A DNA stretch of 57,835 nt, from NCBI GenBank assembly GCA_048938025.1, contig JBHLMP010000020.1, positions 1-57,835 of the forward strand, written 5' to 3'. This document shows, piece after piece, positions 9,739-46,403 of the stretch (position 1 is the stretch's first letter; each line of letters opens with the position of its first letter). The DNA is from Promethearchaeota archaeon (GTDB lineage: Archaea > Asgardarchaeota > Lokiarchaeia > Sigyniarchaeales > SOKP01). A program made the position numbers and the translations under genes. The notes beneath the pieces were generated by a model. The model did no database searches. It was not told the origin of the DNA and was given only the letters and a program-made list of their open reading frames with translations.

Positions 9739-12700
9739 TTATTTTAATTGACTCTTAAGAGTATCTGCATTCTTTTTTATTATACCAGCTAAACTTGACT
9801 GGTTAGCCCCTATCTTCTCTAAAACTTTTAATGCCTCATCAAATTGCTTTAATGCTTTAGGTTTTTTGCCCTGGTTTTTATAAATTAATCCAATACTATG
9901 TAAAACTTCCGCTCGACCCTCTAGATCTCCAAGTATACTAAAATCTTCTATTGCTTCTTCAAAATATTTTAAGGATTTTCGATAAAACTCTTGTTCCATA
10001 TAAAGAGATCCGATTTTATTGAGAAAATTTGCTTTTGCCTTAATATCATTTTGATTTTCAGATAGACTAAGCCCCTCTTCATAATATCTCAATGCTTCTT
10101 CATATGATTTCTGTTCGCTCATAATTAATCCTAAATTCTCAAATGTCTCAATCATTCCTTCATTATTCTCAAGATGTTTAAATATTCGAAGTGCCTCTTC
10201 AGATCTTTCCAAAGCCTCATCAAATCTTCTTTGATTAAAGTAAATCATACCTATATTTTTAATTGAATTAGCCTTTTCTTTCAAGTTACCAATTTGTTCA
10301 TTAATTTTTAATGCTGCTTCATATTGAGTTAATGCTCTTGAATATCTTTTTTGTATTCTATAAATTTCTCCTATATTTATTAATCGTTTTGCTCTTCCCA
10401 GTAAATTACCTAATTCATCATCAATTTCTAATCCTTTTTCATATTGGTTTAGTGCATCATTATATTTTTCTTGATACTGATAAATATTTCCTATAGTTTC
10501 AAGGATATTAGCTTTCATTTCAAGATTTCCTAGTTTTTCAGCAACTTGAAGTATATTTTCATATTGTTTTAGAGCTTCGTCATACCTCTCTTGATATTGA
10601 TAAACATTTCCGATAATTTCTAAGATTTTGGCTTTTTCTTCGAAGTTTTCTAATTCTTCAGTAATAAAGAGTGCTTCATCAAACCATCTTAGGGCTTCAG
10701 GATAATTAACTTGATCTAGATACACATTGCCAATAGTTTTAAGAATTTTCGCTTTCATTGATAAATCTTCTAACTGTTCAGAAATTAATAGTACTTCTTC
10801 AAAATTTTTTATAGCCATATCATAATTTATTTGATAAAGATAATTAAGCCCTATATTAGTAATTGCTATGGTTTTTCCTTCAAGATTTCTCATTTTTTCA
10901 TAAATAGTTAAGGTTTCTTCGAATTTTTTGAAAGCATCGGAATAATTTCCTTGGTCTTGATCAATCAAACCAAGATTTGTAAGAGCTTTGGCTTTTCCCT
11001 TAAGATTTCCTTGTTGTTCATACACATTTAAGGCTTCTTCAAACCGACTCAAAGCTTCAGGGTAATTTCCTTGATCGAGATAAATTACTCCAATATTATT
11101 GATACTATCTGCATATCCAACATCATTCTTTAAATCCAAATAGATAGTTACTGCATCTTCAAATCTTTTTAAAGCTTCCTTATAATTGCCCTGTTCACTA
11201 TAAATTAATCCAATCTTGTTGAGATAAGCGGCTTTATCTCCCAATCTGCTTAGTTTTTCAGAGATCTCTAACATTTTTTCATATCTCCTAATTGCCTTGG
11301 GATAAGCTTTTTGTTTAACATAAATGCTTCCACTCTTTTTAAGAATACTTGCCTTTCCTTCAATGATGCCCAATTCATCTATAATCTGTAAAGCATTTTC
11401 ATATTGTTCTAATGCAGCTGGAAAATTTTTTTGTTTCTTATAAATATTTCCAATATTGAATAATAATCGTGCTTTATCCTCCAAATTACCTGTTTGCTCA
11501 ATGATATTTAGAGCTTCTTGAAATTGGTTTATAGCTTTAGTTAAATTCCATTGATTTGTATAGATTAAGCCATTGTTAAACAGACATTCAGCTTTTCCTT
11601 CTATATTTCCTAATTTTTCAAAAAGAGGAAGCGCTTCTCCAAACTCTTTTAAAGCTTTTCTATGGTAACCTTGCCTTCTAAATATTGTACCTATTTTTAA
11701 TTTAGAATTTGATTTCCCTATTAAATCTCCTAACTCATCATAAATCTTCAACGCCTCTTGAAAAGCATCGAGAGAATCAGAATATTTGTGTTGAATATTA
11801 AGTATATTTCCAATTTTTCGTAGAGTATTAGCTTTTTCTCTTAAATTACCCATTTTATTGTATATTTTAATTAAATCTTCATATTTTAATATTGTTTCAT
11901 CAAAATTCCCCTGCTCCTGATAAATTTGCCCTAAATTATTAAGATCGTGTGCTATCCTTGCAAAATTTTTTAACTTTTCATCAATCTTTAAAGCTTCATT
12001 AAAATATTCTAATGCTTTAATATAATTTCTTTGACTATGATAGATTACTCCGATATTACCCATATTTAATGCTTTAGCTGTAAAATTTTTTGTAGTTTCT
12101 GCAATTTGAAGTGCTCCCTCAAAAGAATTTAGTGCTTCCGGGAATTTTTCTTGATCCTTATAAATTAAACCTATTTTATTTAATAATGTCGCTCTTAGGT
12201 TTAAATTACCTGATTCTTCAGAAACGCTAATTAGTTCTTTGAGGCATCCTAATGCTTCATTATATTCATTAAGAAAAAAATAAATTTTGTAAGAAATAGT
12301 GTTTTTAGTAATATCATCAATAATTTTAAGATTTTCTTTGAACCAATCTAAAATGTCTATAGAGAAGTTTTCTTTACTCATCTCTGGCTTAATATCTAAT
12401 AATTCTTCAAAAAATTTCGTTGTATTTGTATTTATGCGATATATATTTACATCGTAATTTATTTGTTTTATTTCATTTAGTATATAATCGACATTATCCA
12501 ATTTTTCTAAGGATTGAATTCGCTTAGCATCAACTTCATAAATTTCTTCCTTTCCCTTTTCTCCAATATGATTAATCCAAATGATGTTTCTAAGATTCTT
12601 TAAGACTTTAAGTGTAGGAATAATATCATTATCATTCTGACCAGAATAGCCTACAATAATAAGTGAACGTTCATTTGTGATATTATCAAATAAAGGACGT

Positions 12701-13329
12701 TTATATGGTTCTAATTGAAATATATTTAAACTTTCTTTATTAAAACCTAATAATTTAATTGTATCAGATAAATAATCGCTAGTATCTTCCTCAAAAATAA
12801 TATTTTTAGCTGAGCCATGGATCTTATATAGTGAAAATCTTCCACTTTTCAACAATTTAATAGGATCACTATATTTTCTAAAATCTTTTTCAGTAATGAC
12901 AGTAACTATCCTTTTTTTCATCAAATTAGATTGTAATAGAGCATATTCGATTAAAAAATCGAAATTCGTAGTTATTACAAAAGCCCCTTTTTTAATCATT
13001 TCTGCAATAAAATAGTGTTGAATATTTGGTTTATCGCATAATCCATAATAGTCAATAATCATTAGTTCCTCATCTAAACAATCACGAATAATATCTAAAA
13101 TTGTTTCAAGTCTTAAGTTTTTTAATTTTAAGATTTTCTCTATCTCTGATTTAGAACAACTATACTTGACGATGTTTTTTATCATTTCACTGCTGGCTGG
13201 TAGACATGATGGTGGGTCGATTGAACAACCAGCTCCTACTAGGAATGTTAAATTTTCACCTTTTTTCAATAAATCACGTATGTTAAACTTCGATTCATTA
13301 TTTACAGACGTCATTTTTTTCGCACTCAT
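9739..13329 (-). CDS. SIR2-like domain fused to a long TPR array
   Basis: FLVGAGCS, ITTNFD, LYKIHGS and VGYSG SIR2-like motifs in the first ~260 aa, then about 20 repeats of ~40 aa (N.G.IY..QG.Y..AL..FE.AL.I.E.LG). Confidence 0.85.
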   Translation of the reverse strand: MSAKKMTSVNNESKFNIRDLLKKGENLTFLVGAGCSIDPPSCLPASSEMIKNIVKYSCSKSEIEKILKLKNLRLETILDIIRDCLDEELMIIDYYGLCDKPNIQHYFIAEMIKKGAFVITTNFDFLIEYALLQSNLMKKRIVTVITEKDFRKYSDPIKLLKSGRFSLYKIHGSAKNIIFEEDTSDYLSDTIKLLGFNKESLNIFQLEPYKRPLFDNITNERSLIIVGYSGQNDNDIIPTLKVLKNLRNIIWINHIGEKGKEEIYEVDAKRIQSLEKLDNVDYILNEIKQINYDVNIYRINTNTTKFFEELLDIKPEMSKENFSIDILDWFKENLKIIDDITKNTISYKIYFFLNEYNEALGCLKELISVSEESGNLNLRATLLNKIGLIYKDQEKFPEALNSFEGALQIAETTKNFTAKALNMGNIGVIYHSQRNYIKALEYFNEALKIDEKLKNFARIAHDLNNLGQIYQEQGNFDETILKYEDLIKIYNKMGNLREKANTLRKIGNILNIQHKYSDSLDAFQEALKIYDELGDLIGKSNSKLKIGTIFRRQGYHRKALKEFGEALPLFEKLGNIEGKAECLFNNGLIYTNQWNLTKAINQFQEALNIIEQTGNLEDKARLLFNIGNIYKKQKNFPAALEQYENALQIIDELGIIEGKASILKKSGSIYVKQKAYPKAIRRYEKMLEISEKLSRLGDKAAYLNKIGLIYSEQGNYKEALKRFEDAVTIYLDLKNDVGYADSINNIGVIYLDQGNYPEALSRFEEALNVYEQQGNLKGKAKALTNLGLIDQDQGNYSDAFKKFEETLTIYEKMRNLEGKTIAITNIGLNYLYQINYDMAIKNFEEVLLISEQLEDLSMKAKILKTIGNVYLDQVNYPEALRWFDEALFITEELENFEEKAKILEIIGNVYQYQERYDEALKQYENILQVAEKLGNLEMKANILETIGNIYQYQEKYNDALNQYEKGLEIDDELGNLLGRAKRLINIGEIYRIQKRYSRALTQYEAALKINEQIGNLKEKANSIKNIGMIYFNQRRFDEALERSEEALRIFKHLENNEGMIETFENLGLIMSEQKSYEEALRYYEEGLSLSENQNDIKAKANFLNKIGSLYMEQEFYRKSLKYFEEAIEDFSILGDLEGRAEVLHSIGLIYKNQGKKPKALKQFDEALKVLEKIGANQSSLAGIIKKNADTLKSQLK

Positions 13330-20012: not shown

Positions 20013-20997
20013 CTAAAATTTTGATAAGTTATCTATTCTCTGGTCTAATTTAGAAATAACTTCATCCCATTTAGATAAGATTTCTTCTACTTTAGGAATA
20101 ACTATATCTCTTTCCTTATATTCTAAATAATCTAAGAATTCTTTAATATTTTCAATTTTCATAAAAGTTTCTGCAACATACTTCCGAATCTCGGATTTTT
20201 GATTATTTAAAACTTCAGGAATTCTATTGTGTTCTCCACGTCGTATTAATGTCGCTAAATATTCTTCTGTCCCTTGCAATAGGGAATTTAATTGATTTAT
20301 CCGTTCCATAATAAAGTTTTCATAAGTCTCAAAAATTCTATCTTTTGGAAAAAAATTAGTGATATCTATGATAAATTTCTGGGTTAGCTTAACTAATTGC
20401 TCCATGCTTTCATATCCTTCAATTACATAATCAACAGTATGATAAGATGCTTCAATACCTTTATTAACATCATTCAATCTAAAAATTTTAAAACCAGGGT
20501 CATTTTTTAATCGCTTTTCGGGATCCCCTTTTTTGTCTGCTACCTCGATTTGACGTATTAACCTTGTTGGATTAAATACGAGAGAAATTGCTAATGGATT
20601 ATTAGTTTGATAAGACAATGTAGTTTTAATATCTATGTGGCTCATCATCACTTTTTAGCTAAAACGGTGGAAATCAAACGTTTTTGAAGCCAGGATGAGA
20701 ATGCCACCAGCCAACCGTGAATTCAGGTGGTTGATTTGAAAACGCTTTGTCATCAATGATATATAAAGCTTCATAATCTTCATCTGACCATTTATATTGG
20801 TCTATAACTGCATCCTTATCGAGCTTTTGATGCATTATAGGATATACTTCAGTGATATGTACATCATCACCTTCATTTTTTCCGATAAAAATCCCACTAA
20901 CTTCAAGCCAATCGTCTTTTGGGACTTTCTGGTTTGCAAATCTCACAGAGGCAGCAACAATTGTCAAATAGACCTTTTTCGGAATAATAATAGTCAT
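20013..20997 (-). CDS. JAB/MPN+ (JAMM) metalloprotease, predicted two-exon gene join(20997..20686, 20654..20013), 317 aa
   Basis: Track ORFs 20674..20997 and 20013..20651 are the two halves of one MPN domain (EVSG...VGWWHSHPGF and KVMMSHID...NPLAISLVFNP); removing 31 nt restores HSHPGFKVMMSHID. Confidence 0.85.
20655..20685 (-). other. Candidate 31-nt bulge-helix-bulge (BHB) mRNA intron
   Basis: Minus-strand RNA: GGCU, bulge UC^A, AAAACG, 12-nt loop, CGUUUU, AGCU, bulge AA^A; 4-bp central helix GGCU/AGCU with two 3-nt bulges; canonical cuts excise exactly 31 nt and restore the frame. Confidence 0.8.
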
Positions 20998-21163
20998 GTT
21001 CCTAAATCAATTTTTTAATTATTCAAATTGAATTATATTGATTAATACTAATTTTACTATTTATGTTTTAGTTTGAATATAAAATTATATAACTATGAAA
21101 TTTATATTATAATATTATTACAATATTCAATTCTCAAAATTATATACATTTTTAAAGATAATT

Positions 21164-22020: not shown

Positions 22021-23496
22021 TTGACATCTGATAAAACTGTAATCATTAAACCCCTGGCATATTATAAGATGCTTATTCATATTCTTCGATTTGGTAACAA
22101 AGTGATTGATCGTAAACAATACCGGGAATGTATGGGTGTTCTTATTGGCCGTCTTCTCGAAGGAGAACCTGATAAAAAAGGGATCAATGATGTAATTGTG
22201 GAAGATGCAGTACCCATTTCCCATGGCGGCTCAATAGAAGTTGCTTTTGCCCCAGAAGATTATGTAACATTCTCTATGGTAGATGCTGAATTTGCAGAAA
22301 AAGGATGGTTTAGTGTAGGATGGTACCATTCTCACCCTGGTTTGAAGATTTTCTTTTCGGGTACAGATATAAAAAACATGCTTGGTTGGCAGACTCCTAA
22401 TCCAAGCGCTATTGGAATTGTTTTTGACCATACCTTCTTAGAGAAACCTGGAGATATGGGATTTCGCACATTTAGATTAGATGACCCCTCTAAAGGTCAA
22501 ACAACAGGGTATCATGAAGTAAAAACAGTAGTTGAACCTCCAGATAATCTTGAATATTACCAAAAACTTATAGAATTAATTAACGGTGTTCACTCTAAAG
22601 AACCACCAATCTTAGAAATTAATGAAATGCCTGATTTATTTGGTGATATTGCTATTCCTAGTCAAGATCTATTAATAGCAAAGAAACCAGAATTAGAATT
22701 AACTACAATTTTTTCTGCTATCCAGAATGGAATCTCAAGTTTTTTAAAGTTGACAATTGAGCCATTTGTAACATTTCTTAATGTATGGAGTCAAGAAATA
22801 ATTAGAAAAACAATTGAATCCAATTTAGAAATGAGAAATAATATTTTAGTTATAAAGGAAAAGATTGGAAATGGTATCTCTAATATACAAAAAGATTTTA
22901 AATTTTCCTTAAAAGATAAATTGAATCAATTAGACACATATATCGATGATAAATTTGATGAATTTGATTATAACAATGAAAGTCTTAAAAAAATTATAAG
23001 TCAAATTAAAATTGAACTTAATGATAAATTGAAGGTTATATTTGAAGAAAAGCTAAAGGTTTCTCTAGATCAAGGTATAAACTCGTTTAAAGAAACTCTA
23101 GAAAATTTATCAAAAATAAATCAAGAAAGTTCTAAAGTTTTTGAAAAATTAGAGAGTGAACAAAATTCTCTAAATAGTTTATCAGAGAAAATTGATTCCA
23201 TTGAAGATTCAATCAATAATAAATTAAAGAATCTACAAGACGAAGTTATAAATAAACTGTCCAAAAACATCAATAAAATTGTAGGAAATTTTATTAATTT
23301 AAATAAAGACACAAAGAGTTTCTTATCAGATTTAAAAGCCGCAATTATATTACTGGAAAGTTCAAAGAATCCCATACAAAGTAAAATAAAAACCCTAGAA
23401 ACCGAAAATAAGAATCTCCAAAAAGATTTATTAGAGTTAAAAACTATAAATCAAGATTTATTGAATAAATTAAAAAAATTAGAAGGAGGAGAATAA
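22021..23496 (+). CDS. JAB/MPN+ metalloprotease with long C-terminal coiled coil
   Basis: ECMGVLIG and VGWYHSHPGLKIFFSGTD (intact E...HxH-x7-S-x2-D); ~250 aa heptad-rich tail. Confidence 0.9.
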   Translation: MTSDKTVIIKPLAYYKMLIHILRFGNKVIDRKQYRECMGVLIGRLLEGEPDKKGINDVIVEDAVPISHGGSIEVAFAPEDYVTFSMVDAEFAEKGWFSVGWYHSHPGLKIFFSGTDIKNMLGWQTPNPSAIGIVFDHTFLEKPGDMGFRTFRLDDPSKGQTTGYHEVKTVVEPPDNLEYYQKLIELINGVHSKEPPILEINEMPDLFGDIAIPSQDLLIAKKPELELTTIFSAIQNGISSFLKLTIEPFVTFLNVWSQEIIRKTIESNLEMRNNILVIKEKIGNGISNIQKDFKFSLKDKLNQLDTYIDDKFDEFDYNNESLKKIISQIKIELNDKLKVIFEEKLKVSLDQGINSFKETLENLSKINQESSKVFEKLESEQNSLNSLSEKIDSIEDSINNKLKNLQDEVINKLSKNINKIVGNFINLNKDTKSFLSDLKAAIILLESSKNPIQSKIKTLETENKNLQKDLLELKTINQDLLNKLKKLEGGE

Positions 23497-24906
23497 TTGA
23501 AAATGCCCGAAAATAAGAAAAATAACAATCAAGACAAAAGTGAGAAAGATCAAAGCATTTCAGCGGAAAAAGGCAGAATATTAATAAAAAAAGAAGCTTT
23601 CAGAAATATGATAACCCATGTTTTAAGATTTGGAAGCAATGCATTAGAAAAGAGTGTGGAAGTTATGGGCATTTGCTTAGGAGAATTAACTGAGAATGGG
23701 AAAGACATTGTTTTAATCAATGCTATTCCGATCACTCATGGAAAAAAGGTATCAGCAGGGTTTACTAAAGAGGATTATGATTTATTAACACAACTCGAAA
23801 AGCAATATCAAAAGAAGAATCTTAATATCGTAGGATGGTATAGTTCGCACCCCGGGTGGGGTCTTTATTTTTCTGACATAGAGATAAAAACTCATCAATT
23901 TTTTCAAAAGGAAAGTAATCCTAACGGATTTTGTATTGTTTTTGATCATACTTTAATGGATAAAGATAAGTCTTTTGGTTTTGAGATTTATAGATTTGAT
24001 GATTTTAAAAAAGCAGATAAATATAATACTGTAGTATTTGAAATTGAAGAACCAGCAGACCTAGATTACTTTAAATGGGTTCAGAAATTTGTAGAAGATT
24101 TCCAAAAACAGACACCTATCTTAATTAAAGAGATTAACGAATCAAAAGAATCAATTCCGGGAGAATTACAAGAAATACCTATATCAGAAGAGATATCACC
24201 AGAAGAAGAATTAGATGACTATTCACATATTTCACCGATAATTTTAGGATTTCAAACAGGAGTGTCTAAATTTTCTGAATCGGTAATAGATATTTTCAAG
24301 TCTCAATTTGGAGATTGGACTAATAATCTTAAAGAAGGATCTTCGAAAGGTTCAGAATATTTACGTAATAGCATAAATAAAATGAAAGAAGCAGCCTCTC
24401 AAAGTCTTATTAAAGTAGAGAATTGGTTTAACAGAAGTATGGATAGTATGTTAAATGGATTTAAAGAAACTGTTGTTAAATATGTAGACCAAAGAGTTGA
24501 AGCTCAAACTCAGTTAAGAAATGATCTCAATAATATAAAAGAAGATCAATTTAATGATTTAGACAGAATTACTGATGATAATTTAAAATATATTAAAAGT
24601 GAAATAGCATCTGTTGTTAAATTAACAACTGAAAAAGTAAATAATATCACTGAAATGAATTCTAAGATTGAAAAGATGATTGGCAGTATTTCTAACGTAA
24701 TCTTAACAATTGAAAGTGAATCAAATAATCTTAGTAATAAAATAGAAAAAAATATTGAAACAACAATTAATCAATTTGAAATAAGTATTAATGAAAAAAT
24801 TGAAAAAATGAGTTCAGAATTACAACCATTTAAAGAATATTACTCAGAAATTAGTGAATTGTTAGAAAAGTTACAAAAAATAATCACAGATTTTCGCAAT
24901 ATTTAA
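23497..24906 (+). CDS. JAB/MPN domain protein with degenerate JAMM motif and long coiled coil
   Basis: EVMGICLG and VGWYSSHPGWGLYFSDIE (first His to Ser, Asp to Glu); abuts the preceding gene; GGAGG RBS upstream. Confidence 0.85.
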   Translation: MKMPENKKNNNQDKSEKDQSISAEKGRILIKKEAFRNMITHVLRFGSNALEKSVEVMGICLGELTENGKDIVLINAIPITHGKKVSAGFTKEDYDLLTQLEKQYQKKNLNIVGWYSSHPGWGLYFSDIEIKTHQFFQKESNPNGFCIVFDHTLMDKDKSFGFEIYRFDDFKKADKYNTVVFEIEEPADLDYFKWVQKFVEDFQKQTPILIKEINESKESIPGELQEIPISEEISPEEELDDYSHISPIILGFQTGVSKFSESVIDIFKSQFGDWTNNLKEGSSKGSEYLRNSINKMKEAASQSLIKVENWFNRSMDSMLNGFKETVVKYVDQRVEAQTQLRNDLNNIKEDQFNDLDRITDDNLKYIKSEIASVVKLTTEKVNNITEMNSKIEKMIGSISNVILTIESESNNLSNKIEKNIETTINQFEISINEKIEKMSSELQPFKEYYSEISELLEKLQKIITDFRNI

Positions 24907-25531: not shown

Positions 25532-27880
25532 ATGAAAAAAAAAGAGTTTATATCAAACCTTCGAACAAAGATTGCAGCCTTTAAGTCAAGAACAGGTGAA
25601 AAATTAAAGGATTATGCTGATAAACTTGTTCACAAGGAAGTTTATGTTGATGGGCAAGAACCTCCAAAATTTTATTCATTTGAAAAAAAATTTCTTGGCT
25701 TGTATATTATTTTTATAATATCATCTTTAGTTTTAATATTAGCAATTAACTTTTCACAAAATAGTTTTATTGATACAATAATTTTTACTGTTTCAAATGC
25801 AATTGTTGCATTCTTTTTGCTACTATCTGGAGTATTAAGTATAGATAAGTTAAGGTTATTTTTATTTGAAGAACGAACTTTAATTAAACAATTTATTTTT
25901 TATATAGCTTTATTTACTTTACTTATTCCAATTTCTTTTTATATCTCAACAGATATTAACTTCATAACTTATTTATCGATTTTTGCAATGATATGGTTAT
26001 TTCTTCTAAGCAGCAGATTCTATATTTATTCTAGGAAATTTGCTACAAAAATTGAAGCAAAATTTATTAAAAAATATTCAATCCCTAGATATCTTATCGC
26101 CATTATTATTCCCTTTTTGATATTAATTGTTCTTGTTATTCTTTCCCTATTTTATAGGAGTTTCTTAGTGTTTCTTTCATTAGATATTTTTGGCAAGATT
26201 GATCCTAGTGCCGCTGTTAAAGTATATAATCTAGAAATGCGTGTTGTTATGCCGTTAATTTATTTTAGTTTGGTATTGACCTTGGTATTTATAATATTTG
26301 AATTCGTTTTTACTAGAAGGCGCGCAGAAACAAAAAGAGCTGGAACCTTTGACAATTTTACTTTTTCTTTAATTGTTTTATTCATCTTTTTCTTTCAAAT
26401 TTTGGAAATCAGCATCTTTATGTTATTAAGACCAGAGACAATAGATGCATTTAAAGCAACGGTAGGAGCTACTGCCTCGCCCCTTGGCTTTATTTTAATT
26501 CTTGAGTTTATTATTTCTATGTATTTTCTATATAGGGTTGTTAAAAAGACTGGTAGAACATTAGGTTGGCGTATCTTTATATTTAAGAAAGACGGATTAA
26601 TTTTATTCTTTTTAGCATGTGTGCTCGCTCAAACTATGACACGTTTTGCTCTAACAAATGAAATAACAAATCAAGAAGTAACTCCAATTGGGATTTGGTT
26701 AATGGCGGATAAATATGTAATTTCAGTATTGATGATTTTTCTATTAGGGAGTACTTTATTAGTCTATTATATAAAACCTCATGAGACTTCAATGTTTATG
26801 AGACTTCAAAAAGAATTGGTATATGATGAAGAAAAGAATATTGAAAAAATTTATAAGATTATAAGAAGTGAATACATCCGGAGGGGAGAGACTTTTCCAA
26901 TTGAAATACTTGAACGTGAATTAATTAAAGCGACTCGATTATCAAAAACTAATGTTTACAATCTAATTGAGCAATTAGCAAGTAAAGATATGAACATTCT
27001 TATAACAGAAAGAAAAGAGGAATTTGGAAAACCCGTAAAATTTTTAGATTTTACCTCCGTTACCGAAAGATTCGATAGAAAAGGAAAAGCACAAGAAAAA
27101 GCAAAAAAATTTCTTGCTCAAAGATTATATGAAACAAGTTTAGCAAAAAAGAGTAGAAAAAGTAGATTAAAAACTATTAGTGAATCCGAAAAAGCATCAG
27201 ATCAACTTATTGCCTCTCTTACTACAAATTATATAAAAAAGCAAGTAGATGAAAAAAAAATTGAAAAAGTAAAAGAAGAAGCAAAGTTAACCGCTGATTT
27301 GAAAGTAAACTTAACAGATACTTTACAAAATCAACTATTAGAAATGATTAAAACTGAATATTTCTATAGAATAGAAAACAATGATAAATTCTTAGATTTT
27401 TCTATCCCTATCTCAGAAATTTCAGATCAAATTGAATTAAATACGAGAATTACTCCTGGAGAATTATATCCCATCTTAGAAAATCTTAGTAATATTGATG
27501 TGGAATTTACTTTAATTGATAATCCTGATGAACCTGAAGATAAAAAAATCAAATTCTTACCCTTTGCTGATGATAATATGAACTTCTCTTTAGCTAATTT
27601 TCGACCTGAAGAGTATGCTAAATTTAGAATTCATGTATCTAAAAATTTTTATAGAGCTCTCAAAGCAAAGAAAGAAAAAAGAACCCTTTTTCAATTGAAA
27701 AAAGAAATTTCAGATAAAACCGAAGGTCAAAAATCTTGGTATAATCTAGTAGATAATTTATATAAATATTATCCTTTATATGTTGAAAGATTAATTTCTA
27801 TTCCGAATAGAACAAAATTAAATAACCAAATAAGGAAAATGATAAAAACAGATGAAAAGAAAAATAGTATGAATAATTAA
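25532..27880 (+). CDS. Multi-pass membrane protein with large cytoplasmic C-terminal region
   Basis: About 10 hydrophobic segments in the first ~415 aa; soluble tail with two similar IYKII/LLEMI...EY...PI.....Y..(I/L)E.L segments, possibly winged helices. Confidence 0.75.
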   Translation: MKKKEFISNLRTKIAAFKSRTGEKLKDYADKLVHKEVYVDGQEPPKFYSFEKKFLGLYIIFIISSLVLILAINFSQNSFIDTIIFTVSNAIVAFFLLLSGVLSIDKLRLFLFEERTLIKQFIFYIALFTLLIPISFYISTDINFITYLSIFAMIWLFLLSSRFYIYSRKFATKIEAKFIKKYSIPRYLIAIIIPFLILIVLVILSLFYRSFLVFLSLDIFGKIDPSAAVKVYNLEMRVVMPLIYFSLVLTLVFIIFEFVFTRRRAETKRAGTFDNFTFSLIVLFIFFFQILEISIFMLLRPETIDAFKATVGATASPLGFILILEFIISMYFLYRVVKKTGRTLGWRIFIFKKDGLILFFLACVLAQTMTRFALTNEITNQEVTPIGIWLMADKYVISVLMIFLLGSTLLVYYIKPHETSMFMRLQKELVYDEEKNIEKIYKIIRSEYIRRGETFPIEILERELIKATRLSKTNVYNLIEQLASKDMNILITERKEEFGKPVKFLDFTSVTERFDRKGKAQEKAKKFLAQRLYETSLAKKSRKSRLKTISESEKASDQLIASLTTNYIKKQVDEKKIEKVKEEAKLTADLKVNLTDTLQNQLLEMIKTEYFYRIENNDKFLDFSIPISEISDQIELNTRITPGELYPILENLSNIDVEFTLIDNPDEPEDKKIKFLPFADDNMNFSLANFRPEEYAKFRIHVSKNFYRALKAKKEKRTLFQLKKEISDKTEGQKSWYNLVDNLYKYYPLYVERLISIPNRTKLNNQIRKMIKTDEKKNSMNN

Positions 27881-37045: not shown

Positions 37046-38491
37046 TCACCTAATAATAATATTCCTAACTTTAATTAAAATACTTCCGATTCCTAATCTA
37101 ACTTTTTGAGAACCAAATTTGTGTAAACAATAGAATGTAATTATTACGCAAGTAATTATTCCAATAATAATAATACCAATTTGAAAATTAAATATTAAAG
37201 TGTAATAAATTGAAAGAATCATTAATTGATAATTAGTTGTAACAAAACCTAATTTAAAAAATGATTTAAAGCTAATAGGACGTTTATTTTGTTCAGCAAT
37301 GTTAACTACAAGAATATTATCCCCCAATGGAGTTAAATTATCACCCCAATTTGCTCCAAATGCCATACTATAAAAAATCTGTTTTCTATCAATTAATAAA
37401 GCGTTTTCTGTCATTTTATCTGCAACAGGAATTAATACTTTTGTAATTGGAATATTGTCAATACAACTACTTAAATATGCTGAGAACCATAGAATTAGTA
37501 ATAATTGTAAGAAAAGGTTGTTCCCCCCCAAATTTAACAAGGCATTTCCAATAGCACCAGTAACTCCAGTTATTTCAAGACCACCTACTATTATAAAAAT
37601 GCCTAATAAGTAGAACAATAATTCAAAATCTATTTTATATATTATTACTTTGGGATCTATTTTAGTAATTATAAGTAAAATAATAGCAATGGTTATAGCA
37701 ATAATATCTGCTGATATCAAGGAGGATGGTATTATTGCTAGTAGTGATAGTAAAATTATCAAAGCGGCTAATGATTCAACTAATAATCGTTTATTTTGAA
37801 CAACATTCCACACATTAAATTCTCTTAATACTCTTATACCTTCTTCAGGCATTATTAATTCATTTTTATAGATTAAGATAAAAAATAATATAGTAAATAT
37901 GAAAAGTACTATAGAAATTAATCCAACATTTATAAAAAACTCCAAAAATTCTATTCCTGCAAATGTTGTGATTAATATATTAGGTATAGAAGAAATAGAA
38001 AAAATAGTCCCTCCAATATTCACTAAAATTGCCTGTGTTAATATATAAGGAGATGGATTGATATTTAAAATTCTTGATACGGTAATTGTTAGGGGAATAA
38101 TTATAATGACCGTTAAAATGTTATTTAAGATTGCTGATATGAATACTGTTACACAACAAAATATTACCATTAAAAGGATGGGTTTTCCTCTTGATAATTT
38201 GATTAATTTTATTGCGATCAATTGGAAAGTACCTGCCTCGTGAGAAATGTGAACAACCATCATCATTCCAATAATTAAAATTAAGGAATGCAAATTCACA
38301 AAATCATCATCTTTAGAACTGAACATTAAATCAACAACTATTGAAAAATCGAAACCTTCTATAAATATCAGCACAAAATACGTAATTATTGCCGCTGTTA
38401 ATGAAGCAATTGCTCGATTTAATCGTTCACTGATAATAAGAATAATTATAACAATAAATGATATTAGGATTATTATTGCACTTACGAACAA
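37046..38491 (-). CDS. ArsB/NhaD/SLC13 (ion transporter superfamily) permease
   Basis: ISAILNNI, NIGGT..IS..PNI, SSCIDNIP and GANWGDNLTPLG...N motifs; 12 or more TM segments. Confidence 0.85.
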   Translation of the reverse strand: MFVSAIIILISFIVIIILIISERLNRAIASLTAAIITYFVLIFIEGFDFSIVVDLMFSSKDDDFVNLHSLILIIGMMMVVHISHEAGTFQLIAIKLIKLSRGKPILLMVIFCCVTVFISAILNNILTVIIIIPLTITVSRILNINPSPYILTQAILVNIGGTIFSISSIPNILITTFAGIEFLEFFINVGLISIVLFIFTILFFILIYKNELIMPEEGIRVLREFNVWNVVQNKRLLVESLAALIILLSLLAIIPSSLISADIIAITIAIILLIITKIDPKVIIYKIDFELLFYLLGIFIIVGGLEITGVTGAIGNALLNLGGNNLFLQLLLILWFSAYLSSCIDNIPITKVLIPVADKMTENALLIDRKQIFYSMAFGANWGDNLTPLGDNILVVNIAEQNKRPISFKSFFKLGFVTTNYQLMILSIYYTLIFNFQIGIIIIGIITCVIITFYCLHKFGSQKVRLGIGSILIKVRNIIIR

Positions 38492-45590: not shown

Positions 45591-46403
45591 TTATTGAAAA
45601 TATTGAGTGTATCCCTCTTTTGGAGACGAAGGTAGTTGTTGTTGTCTTTGATATTCTTGTGCCTTCTGTGCCAATTCTAACATTTTGGCTTTAATCTCTT
45701 TCCCTTGTTCCATTAATTGGGCAGTATCAATCTTTAATTTATAAATTTTATTCAAAACTGTAATAATACTAGCTGCTCCTTCAGGTGTGGGAATTTCCAA
45801 TACTGGAGTAAATAAAGCATAAGCATCTAATTTATTAGATAATGCCTCATTCAGAACTGTTGCTTCAGGTCCAACGATAATCCCTTTCTCAACAGGTTCG
45901 ATTTCAAGGTTTAAATCCTTTAACTTTTTAATCATATTCTCTTCTGCCGCGAAATAAACTGGATACTCATCAATTACACCTAGCTGTTGAGGTATACCTT
46001 GGAAAATTAATATTTCTTTAGCTTTTACATCTTCACTAAGAGCCCAGTTGCATATGGTTTTAGAAAGGTCGTTGTAAGCAGTGGAAACCTGAAACGGAAC
46101 TTCTGATATTCCAACAATTATGTTTTTTGAGGGTGTATAATATAATCTAAATGGATGTTTAAGTACTCCCTTATAAAAGACGCTAATAGGTGGTAAATAT
46201 TCAGAAGTTAAAAATCCAATTTCGCGAATATCTGGAAGCTGATCTATTAGAGTGTTAGCAATAATTGGTCCTATTAAACCAATTCCGGCAAAACCTAATA
46301 TGAATGTAGAACCCGGTTTAATTTCAAATGAAAGATCTTCTATAACGATTGAACTTTTTTTACCTTTGTTGCACACATACTCTTTTTTAACCATTAATAA
46401 CAC
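45591..46403 (-). CDS. Proteasome assembly chaperone PAC2/PbaA-B family protein
   Basis: GFAGIGLIGPIIANTLIDQL, HPFRLY, PTPEGAA and IDTAQL..QG.EI motifs; C-terminus YFQ; start probably ATG 46394. Confidence 0.85.
   Translation of the reverse strand: MLLMVKKEYVCNKGKKSSIVIEDLSFEIKPGSTFILGFAGIGLIGPIIANTLIDQLPDIREIGFLTSEYLPPISVFYKGVLKHPFRLYYTPSKNIIVGISEVPFQVSTAYNDLSKTICNWALSEDVKAKEILIFQGIPQQLGVIDEYPVYFAAEENMIKKLKDLNLEIEPVEKGIIVGPEATVLNEALSNKLDAYALFTPVLEIPTPEGAASIITVLNKIYKLKIDTAQLMEQGKEIKAKMLELAQKAQEYQRQQQLPSSPKEGYTQYFQ

Follow-up and report, generated by a model that had tools for sequence, protein, structure and literature searches.

The interrupted JAMM gene

The window analysed here, a 57.8-kb stretch of Lokiarchaeia (Promethearchaeota) DNA from contig JBHLMP010000020.1, carries on its minus strand a gene for a predicted JAMM (MPN+) metalloprotease that is divided between two open reading frames (ORFs). 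ORF1 (20674..20997, 107 aa) starts at ATG 20997, ends ...WWHSHPGFKNV* (GWWHSHPGFKNV) and matches the Pfam JAB/MPN family PF01398 (E = 9.1e-12). ORF2 (20013..20651, 212 aa) has the N-terminus VMMSHID (VMMSHIDIKTTLS), and this C-terminal part of about 200 residues gave no match in the Pfam scan. The JAMM metal site follows the pattern Glu ... HxHx7Sx2D, and its ligands are shared out between the two halves: exon 1 codes for the upstream Glu (in WLEVSG) and for HSH, and exon 2 supplies the Ser and the Asp before continuing into the C-terminal part. Deletion of the 31 nt from 20685 to 20655 joins 104 and 213 codons into a single frame of 317, reading HSHPGFK|VMMSHID with the full HSHPGFKVMMSHID zinc site, and the metal site is complete solely after this excision. 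The junction is identical to that of uninterrupted orthologues of 315–318 aa, which read GWWHSHPGFKVMMSHID. A preliminary description of this DNA had proposed an unspliced product of 107 aa ending HSHPGFKNV and lacking the Ser and Asp, a spliced product of 317 aa, and an intron whose length is no multiple of three; all three points are borne out by the reading frames.

The interrupting segment, 20685..20655 on the minus strand, is best explained, with a probability of roughly 0.8, as a bulge-helix-bulge (BHB) intron in the coding region of a CSN5/Rpn11-like JAMM gene. In the pre-mRNA, GGCU of the exon and AGCU of the intron would form a 4-bp helix with a 3-nt bulge on each strand, closed on one side by a 6-bp intron helix. 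Each bulge would be opened between its second and third base by EndA, the tRNA splicing endonuclease of archaea, and an RtcB-type ligase would join ...GGC UUC to AAA GUG AUG AUG..., giving the 317-aa protein with an intact zinc site. What is observed is the geometry of the motif, the restored frame, a conserved structure that covaries, and exons that are both under selection; cleavage and ligation themselves we infer from sequence.

Among solved structures, the intronless orthologue P0003 is closest to CSN5 (E = 3e-11), then to Rpn11 (1.3e-8), BRCC36 and AMSH, which makes "deubiquitinase-like" a fair label for the predicted gene product. In 12 pairs with intron-bearing genes (one with saturated dS), the ratio of non-synonymous to synonymous substitution rates (dN/dS) is 0.05–0.26 in exon 1 and 0.06–0.17 in exon 2, indicating that purifying selection acts on both exons where the intron is present and that these genes are not pseudogenes. 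These values tell against a decaying gene inactivated by an insertion, as well as against a truly split gene whose halves are made as separate, reassembling polypeptides. Gene callers do annotate the halves apart, and exon 2 begins near ATG ATG, as a split gene would have it; Met-Met is present in uninterrupted orthologues too, and the Val codon that precedes it varies (GTG/GTA/GTT), so that there is no conserved ribosome-binding site at exon 2. The break also lands within the zinc-binding motif, and neither alternative would explain why the BHB geometry is conserved or why the phase is exact. Decay or a true split is thus very unlikely.

Table 1. Features of the JAMM locus and of its surroundings in the window
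Feature	Position	Strand	Basis or remark
Exon 1 of the JAMM/MPN gene, 104 codons	20686..20997	minus	ATG 20997 to TTC 20688-20686; Pfam JAB, E = 9.1e-12
Predicted BHB intron, 31 nt, AAAAACGUUUGAUUUCCACCGUUUUAGCUAA	20655..20685	minus	Fold, covariation, homologous inserts, covariance model
Exon 2, 213 codons and stop	20013..20654	minus	AAA GTG ATG ATG AGC (K V M M S) at start
TGA closing the unspliced exon 1 frame, product 107 aa	20674..20676	minus	Sequence reading
TAA in the exon 2 frame, last three intron bases	20655..20657	minus	TAA or TAG there in 12/12 inserts
Central helix H, 5′ strand GGCU (exon; Gly codon and first base of Phe)	20688..20691	minus	Pairs with 20657-20660 in the MFE fold
Central helix H′, 3′ strand AGCU (intron)	20657..20660	minus	MFE fold, covariation
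5′ bulge B1, UCA	20685..20687	minus	Unpaired in the MFE fold; predicted cut C20686/A20685
3′ bulge B2, AAA	20654..20656	minus	Predicted cut A20655/A20654
Intron helix h2, 5′ strand AAAACG	20679..20684	minus	Pairs with 20661-20666; compensatory changes in relatives
Intron helix h2, 3′ strand CGUUUU	20661..20666	minus	Pairs with 20679-20684
AAA+ (Mg-chelatase-like) and VWA gene, 734 aa	17651..19855	minus	Downstream, same strand; homologue in 73/80 loci
Zinc-ribbon gene, 218 aa	21164..21820	plus	Divergent, upstream; same orientation in 77/80 loci
MPN+ gene, intact HSHPG...SGTD	22021-23496	plus	Motif reading
MPN-like gene, degenerate SSHPG...SDIE	23497-24906	plus	Motif reading
PAC2-family (proteasome assembly chaperone family) protein	45591-46403	minus	Pfam, E = 4.1e-30
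1196-aa protein, SIR2-like domain (PF13289) and very long TPR array	9739-13329	minus	

Predicted structure and homologous inserts

The minimum free energy (MFE) fold of 20715..20630 contains the central helix, both bulges and the intron helix, with pair probabilities of 0.95–0.98 for the 4 bp of GGCU/AGCU and a broken exon–exon helix beyond the 3′ bulge. In the cbf5 introns described in PMC2738675 the cut falls between the second and third bulge base; the same rule applied in silico gives ...GGC UUC | AAA GUG AUG..., in frame. Rfam and tRNA scans of the window returned no match.

The comparison with relatives covers the best 80 of 90 confirmed loci from a scan of species-representative genomes. 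A homologous insert of 29–32 nt occupies the identical codon boundary in 11 of these 80 loci (approximately one in seven related species), at about 2966–2998 within each locus; the other 69, L064 among them (checked by hand), are uninterrupted. The window and the 11 loci (L014, L031, L036, L037, L039, L041, L046, L048, L057, L065 and L066) form a set of 12 inserts. That canonical BHB excision would restore the frame had been foreseen in the preliminary description, and it does so in 12/12, where the two exons meet at (G/D)F-K-V-M-M-S in an open frame of 308–322 codons. The inserts measure 29, 30, 31 or 32 nt, with each of these lengths represented, so that excision alone, and no fixed frameshift, accounts for the kept downstream frame. 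In the window a simple +1/−1 frameshift or read-through was rejected as well, with TGA 20676-74 and TAA 20657-55 closing both relevant frames.

It is this comparison across relatives, and not fold energy, that rules out chance. Over the 12 sequences, 84.7% of the cells of the BHB structure are paired, compared with 77.8% in column shuffles (0/500 reach the observed value) and with 18.9–54.7% in controls with slid partners. The central helix is paired in 48/48 cells, and two of its four pairs show compensatory changes, GGCU/AGCU being replaced by GGUU/AACU in L014 and L057 and by GACU/AGUU in L036. Double changes affect 8 of the structure's 16 pairs, where 2.9 would be expected. The central helix is part of the MFE fold in 7/12 sequences; RNAalifold, run unguided on all 12, returned another consensus of long exon–exon helices and no BHB. 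The inserts are of two subtypes. Subtype a (the window, L014, L036, L041, L046, L048 and L066) combines a regular 5′ bulge of 3 nt with an intron-side outer helix of 5–6 bp, and subtype b (L031, L037, L039, L057 and L065; AUUUGAACUGGAUUUACCAGACUU...) has U-U mismatches or a 5′ bulge of 6–7 nt.

Several results weigh against a BHB intron. The fold energy of the window is not beyond chance (z = −1.43, with 19/200 shuffles as good or better), and in its MFE fold the 3′ bulge is 4 nt (AAAA) instead of 3. The exon-side outer helix is weak, as the preliminary description had remarked, with 3 pairs and 80.6% of cells paired over the 12 sequences. Further pair types are not significantly enriched (11 versus 9.7, a value reached by 110/500 shuffles), and in L014, L036, L039, L057 and L065 a competing MFE fold lacks the central helix, whose pair probabilities there are 0.01–0.58. 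Because of their U-U mismatches or larger 5′ bulge, the five subtype-b inserts would need an enzyme of relaxed specificity. Finally, the 35 window ORFs scanned include neither EndA nor RtcB, so that the presence of both in the host genome is assumed from the literature. Asgard archaea are described as having an (alpha-beta)2 EndA with an L1 loop tied to broad specificity (PMC5829648), and an EndA homologue is reported for 58/60 Asgard genomes (bioRxiv 10.64898/2026.10.13.758758). Taken as a predicted structure, the motif fits better in the relaxed class than in the strict hBHBh′ class.

The intron is conserved in sequence as well as in structure. Pairs of introns are on average 0.70 identical, compared with 0.435 for four-fold sites in the genes that carry them, and the intron value is the higher of the two in 64/66 pairs; L031 and L057 have 28/30 intron bases in common at 41% four-fold identity. 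Among carriers of subtype b the intron is 87–100% identical with four-fold sites approximately 40% identical, a likeness that would reflect either strong sequence constraint or exchange of the intron between lineages. In the exon 2 frame, each of the 12 inserts closes with a stop triplet, TAA in all except L066, which has TAG. This TAA is made up of the U of the G-U pair closing the central helix, which is kept as G-U and not G-C in 12/12, and two bulge A's. The terminal stop could be a fail-safe against unspliced mRNA, or could simply be inherited.

The same inserts bear on programmed translational bypassing, put forward in the preliminary description as an alternative in which ribosomes take off at AAA 20685-83, skip 31 nt and land at AAA 20654-52 in the style of phage T4 gene 60. 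In that gene the take-off and landing codons are matched and a stop lies directly after the take-off codon. The two AAA triplets are present as claimed, and the window resembles gene 60 in its matched end codons and in a short gap containing a hairpin. The fit holds for the window, where the Lys codons match as they do in L014, L041, L048 and L066, and fails in the wider set: since the matched codons occur in just 5/12 inserts, bypassing is disfavored. The other 7/12 lack a matched pair, with AGA, CAG, AUU or GUU as the codon after Phe, and re-pairing on Phe is impossible too, the triplet before the landing Lys always being UAA/UAG. Unlike gene 60, the window has no stop directly past the take-off codon (AAA AAC GTT TGA). 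The compensatory changes between exon and intron are, moreover, unneeded for bypassing, which we regard as extremely improbable.

Protein searches give a similar picture of interrupted and uninterrupted relatives. A search with ORF2 found 435 relatives, and those that are named come from Promethearchaeota/Lokiarchaeia-type Asgard metagenome-assembled genomes (MAGs). Among the best 120 of the 435 C-terminal matches, 111 are 301–321 aa long with a JAB domain, and nine, the window included, are 210–212 aa long and start M(M)SHID; 13/19 N-terminal matches end at HSHPGF plus a short tail. The split halves are thus annotated as separate proteins in public sets also. The 118-aa N-terminal half P0124 ends HSHPGFKNFFSVISTVLAKK, an unspliced tail longer than in any of the 12 inserts, and may hold a further intron variant. 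The 161-aa relative P0136 reads ...AFSRDPFKVMMSHID... and lacks the stretch containing GWWHSHPG; it would be either a deletion variant without the two His ligands or an artefact of assembly or gene calling. Locus L026 (DATKTW010000008.1), titled as a Nanopelagicaceae bacterium MAG, has a gene of Asgard type and falls beside L022 in the gene tree; it is probably a mis-binned contig.

Distribution, a proposed switch and probable recombination

The gene tree was inferred quickly by maximum likelihood from the C-terminal part, with 81 rows. Intron presence requires at least nine changes on this tree, at least three of which are forced by well-supported branches, and 7/500 label shuffles need as few. 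Forcing the 12 carriers into one clade costs 413 log-likelihood units (approximately unbiased test, p-AU = 5.8e-56). The intron is missing from L001–L003, the window's nearest relatives, which are 92–96% identical in the C-terminal part. As a predicted BHB intron, the element would be a dispensable passenger obliged to stay spliceable, and its splicing an obligatory housekeeping step for the intron-bearing allele, with no dedicated switch.

A regulated switch modelled on HAC1/XBP1 had been suggested in the preliminary description: the unspliced mRNA would give an inactive 107-aa fragment, and conditional splicing would tie the JAMM protease to EndA/RtcB activity. The unspliced product does lack the Ser and Asp, and stops block each read-through path, with TAA/TAG as the last intron triplet in 12/12. 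The intron sequence is kept, beyond its structure, far above synonymous sites, and with a competing fold as the MFE in 5/12 sequences, formation of the BHB could in principle be modulated. Much of the intron constraint is, however, accounted for by the need to stay spliceable, and the unspliced tails vary (KNV, I, V, KSFGVSKL and others). The suggestion of a switch finds no support: the intron is missing from 69/80 orthologues, the nearest included, and its presence changes at least nine times with a single clade rejected, a comparative pattern that leans against a conserved regulatory role. A switch is accordingly unlikely.

A broader proposal, that the intron is more than a passenger, is also rather unlikely. 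How much of the Asgard CSN5/Rpn11-like protease is made might depend on how efficiently EndA and RtcB splice its message; the 31-mer, which is probably a circle once excised, might itself be functional; or the intron might spread site-specifically. Selection on the primary sequence in excess of what spliceability requires, the terminal stop, subtypes out of step with the host gene, and folds that hide the BHB in some alleles could form the basis of such a proposal. If splicing efficiency did act in this way, archaea would have their own form of regulated, unconventional mRNA splicing.

The similarity of introns follows that of their host genes weakly. A Mantel test gives r = 0.417 (p = 0.006) for all 12 carriers; once the near-identical L037 and L039 are dropped, the correlation is r = 0.19 (p = 0.13). 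The two subtypes are out of step with the host gene: by its host gene, L046 (subtype a) stands nearest to the L031 group (subtype b), and subtype b recurs in the distant L057 and L065. A single clade of subtype-b carriers is rejected (p-AU = 3.2e-4); this test does not separate loss from transfer, and the rejection is not proof of lateral transfer, because intron-free rows may nest through loss.

Between the window and its near relatives, divergence is unevenly distributed. In exon 1 the nucleotide identity between the window and L001 is 0.841, and in exon 2 it is 0.956; the corresponding values for L001 and L002 are 0.959 and 0.939. Sliding identity is 0.83–0.86 from approximately 21100 to the intron, then 0.97–0.98 directly past it, and the last 60–90 nt of exon 1 are 0.76–0.80 identical to L001/L002, no nearer than to distant loci. 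The patch of raised divergence (20655-21100, minus strand), which takes in exon 1 and its upstream edge and has the intron as its exact limit, resembles a recombination tract; the difference in intron content between near relatives would therefore stem from the exchange of a stretch of DNA. The exchange may have gone either way, with gain of the intron in the window or loss in L001–L003. On this evidence different lineages would have gained and lost the predicted intron, in some cases at least through homologous recombination that moved adjoining DNA with it.

Scans for further copies covered approximately 560 kb. A covariance model of the intron, run on the window with filters off, found no second copy; the next match scores 18.2 bits (26281-26320) and sits inside an intact 782-aa ORF, compared with 53.8–66.8 bits at the 11 known sites. 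In the 80 loci the model found nothing past these 11 sites, the weak matches in L032 and L077 scoring 16.8 and 15.8 bits. The DNA scanned thus gives no hint that the intron belongs to a dispersed mobile family. A generic scan of the window for BHB motifs that join ORFs, which is unspecific in AT-rich DNA, gave 24 matches at about 10 places; the JAMM site alone falls within one gene family. A 22-nt BHB candidate at 37048/37025 was rejected, as it joins two unrelated genes, and the remaining places lie at gene junctions with spacers of at least 52 nt. The preliminary description had suggested that more such introns may be hidden as annotated frameshifts in Asgard genomes; in the window and the 80 loci, no second coding-region BHB intron was found.

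Known introns and the genomic neighbourhood

The closest parallel to the predicted JAMM intron is provided by the cbf5 introns of Desulfurococcales and Sulfolobales (Watanabe 2002) as described in Yokobori 2009 (PMC2738675). Both are short, lie in coding regions, have BHB or relaxed-BHB borders and share the same predicted cut; both occur in hosts with hetero-oligomeric endonucleases, with a patchy spread and lineage-specific loss, and in both some conservation of intron sequence suggests a common origin. The intron interior is conserved in the JAMM intron and, according to the same source, highly variable in cbf5. Unlike cbf5, a crenarchaeal pseudouridine synthase gene, the host here is a JAMM/MPN+ protease gene of an Asgard phylum, and the intron sits within the catalytic metal-binding motif. 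The JAMM intron differs further from that of cbf5 in having two subtypes, and in that its presence varies even between genomes approximately 95% identical in protein.

Other archaeal cases share part of this description. The BHB intron in the 5′ untranslated region (UTR) of Haloferax volcanii HVO_1309 likewise makes an mRNA, rather than a tRNA or rRNA, a target of the tRNA splicing endonuclease; it lies in a leader and was shown experimentally, whereas the JAMM intron lies in a coding region and is predicted (PMC7714728). The text of that source gives cbf5 as the sole further archaeal BHB intron until HVO_1309, as of 2020, and states that a specific function of either intron is unknown, which counts against a switch. 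Non-canonical tRNA introns of Asgard archaea share with the JAMM intron the predicted machinery, the motif, the phylum, and repeated gains and losses, and differ in interrupting tRNA genes rather than a protein gene (PMC11291895; bioRxiv 10.64898/2026.10.13.758758). In the literature searched, coding-region BHB introns were limited to crenarchaeal cbf5 (PMC7714728, as far as that source goes), and full-text searches turned up none described from a protein-coding gene of Asgard archaea, subscription journals and supplementary files lying outside the search. As a prediction, the JAMM intron is well supported by comparison.

The parallel with HAC1/XBP1 is looser. Those introns, too, are small and non-spliceosomal, their removal changes the frame, and the exons are joined by a tRNA ligase, as is predicted for the JAMM gene, where the products are 107 aa unspliced and 317 aa spliced. 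HAC1/XBP1 transcripts are spliced at two hairpins, where IRE1 cuts each 7-nt loop behind a conserved G. The predicted cuts in the JAMM transcript follow C20686 and A20655 in 3-nt bulges, and would be made by EndA at a BHB instead of by stress-activated IRE1 at hairpin loops. It is the IRE1 nuclease step that is regulated in HAC1/XBP1, and not a tRNA endonuclease, which argues further against a switch; we know of no regulated EndA. No IRE1-type domain is present among the 35 window ORFs scanned. Regulation is established for HAC1/XBP1 and hypothetical for the JAMM intron. A non-spliceosomal XBP1 intron and the part of RTCB in the unfolded protein response are treated in PMC5435141 and PMC13247085.

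Should the BHB intron be confirmed, the tRNA splicing machinery of Asgard archaea would also serve protein genes, and a second coding-region host gene would be added in the archaeal group closest to eukaryotes. The intron would lie within the catalytic motif of a homologue of eukaryote-like deubiquitinases/deneddylases, and "frameshifted" or split genes in Asgard MAGs may then prove to be intact. The natural polymorphism, with alleles approximately 95% identical in protein, provides a built-in comparison for the cost, regulation or neutrality of the intron.

The genes around the JAMM locus are listed in Table 1. Beyond the divergent zinc-ribbon gene, the MPN genes at 22021-23496 and 23497-24906 stand in tandem, both with long C-terminal regions, in a layout that resembles eukaryotic MPN+/MPN− pairs. 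The PAC2-family gene shares the window with all three MPN genes.

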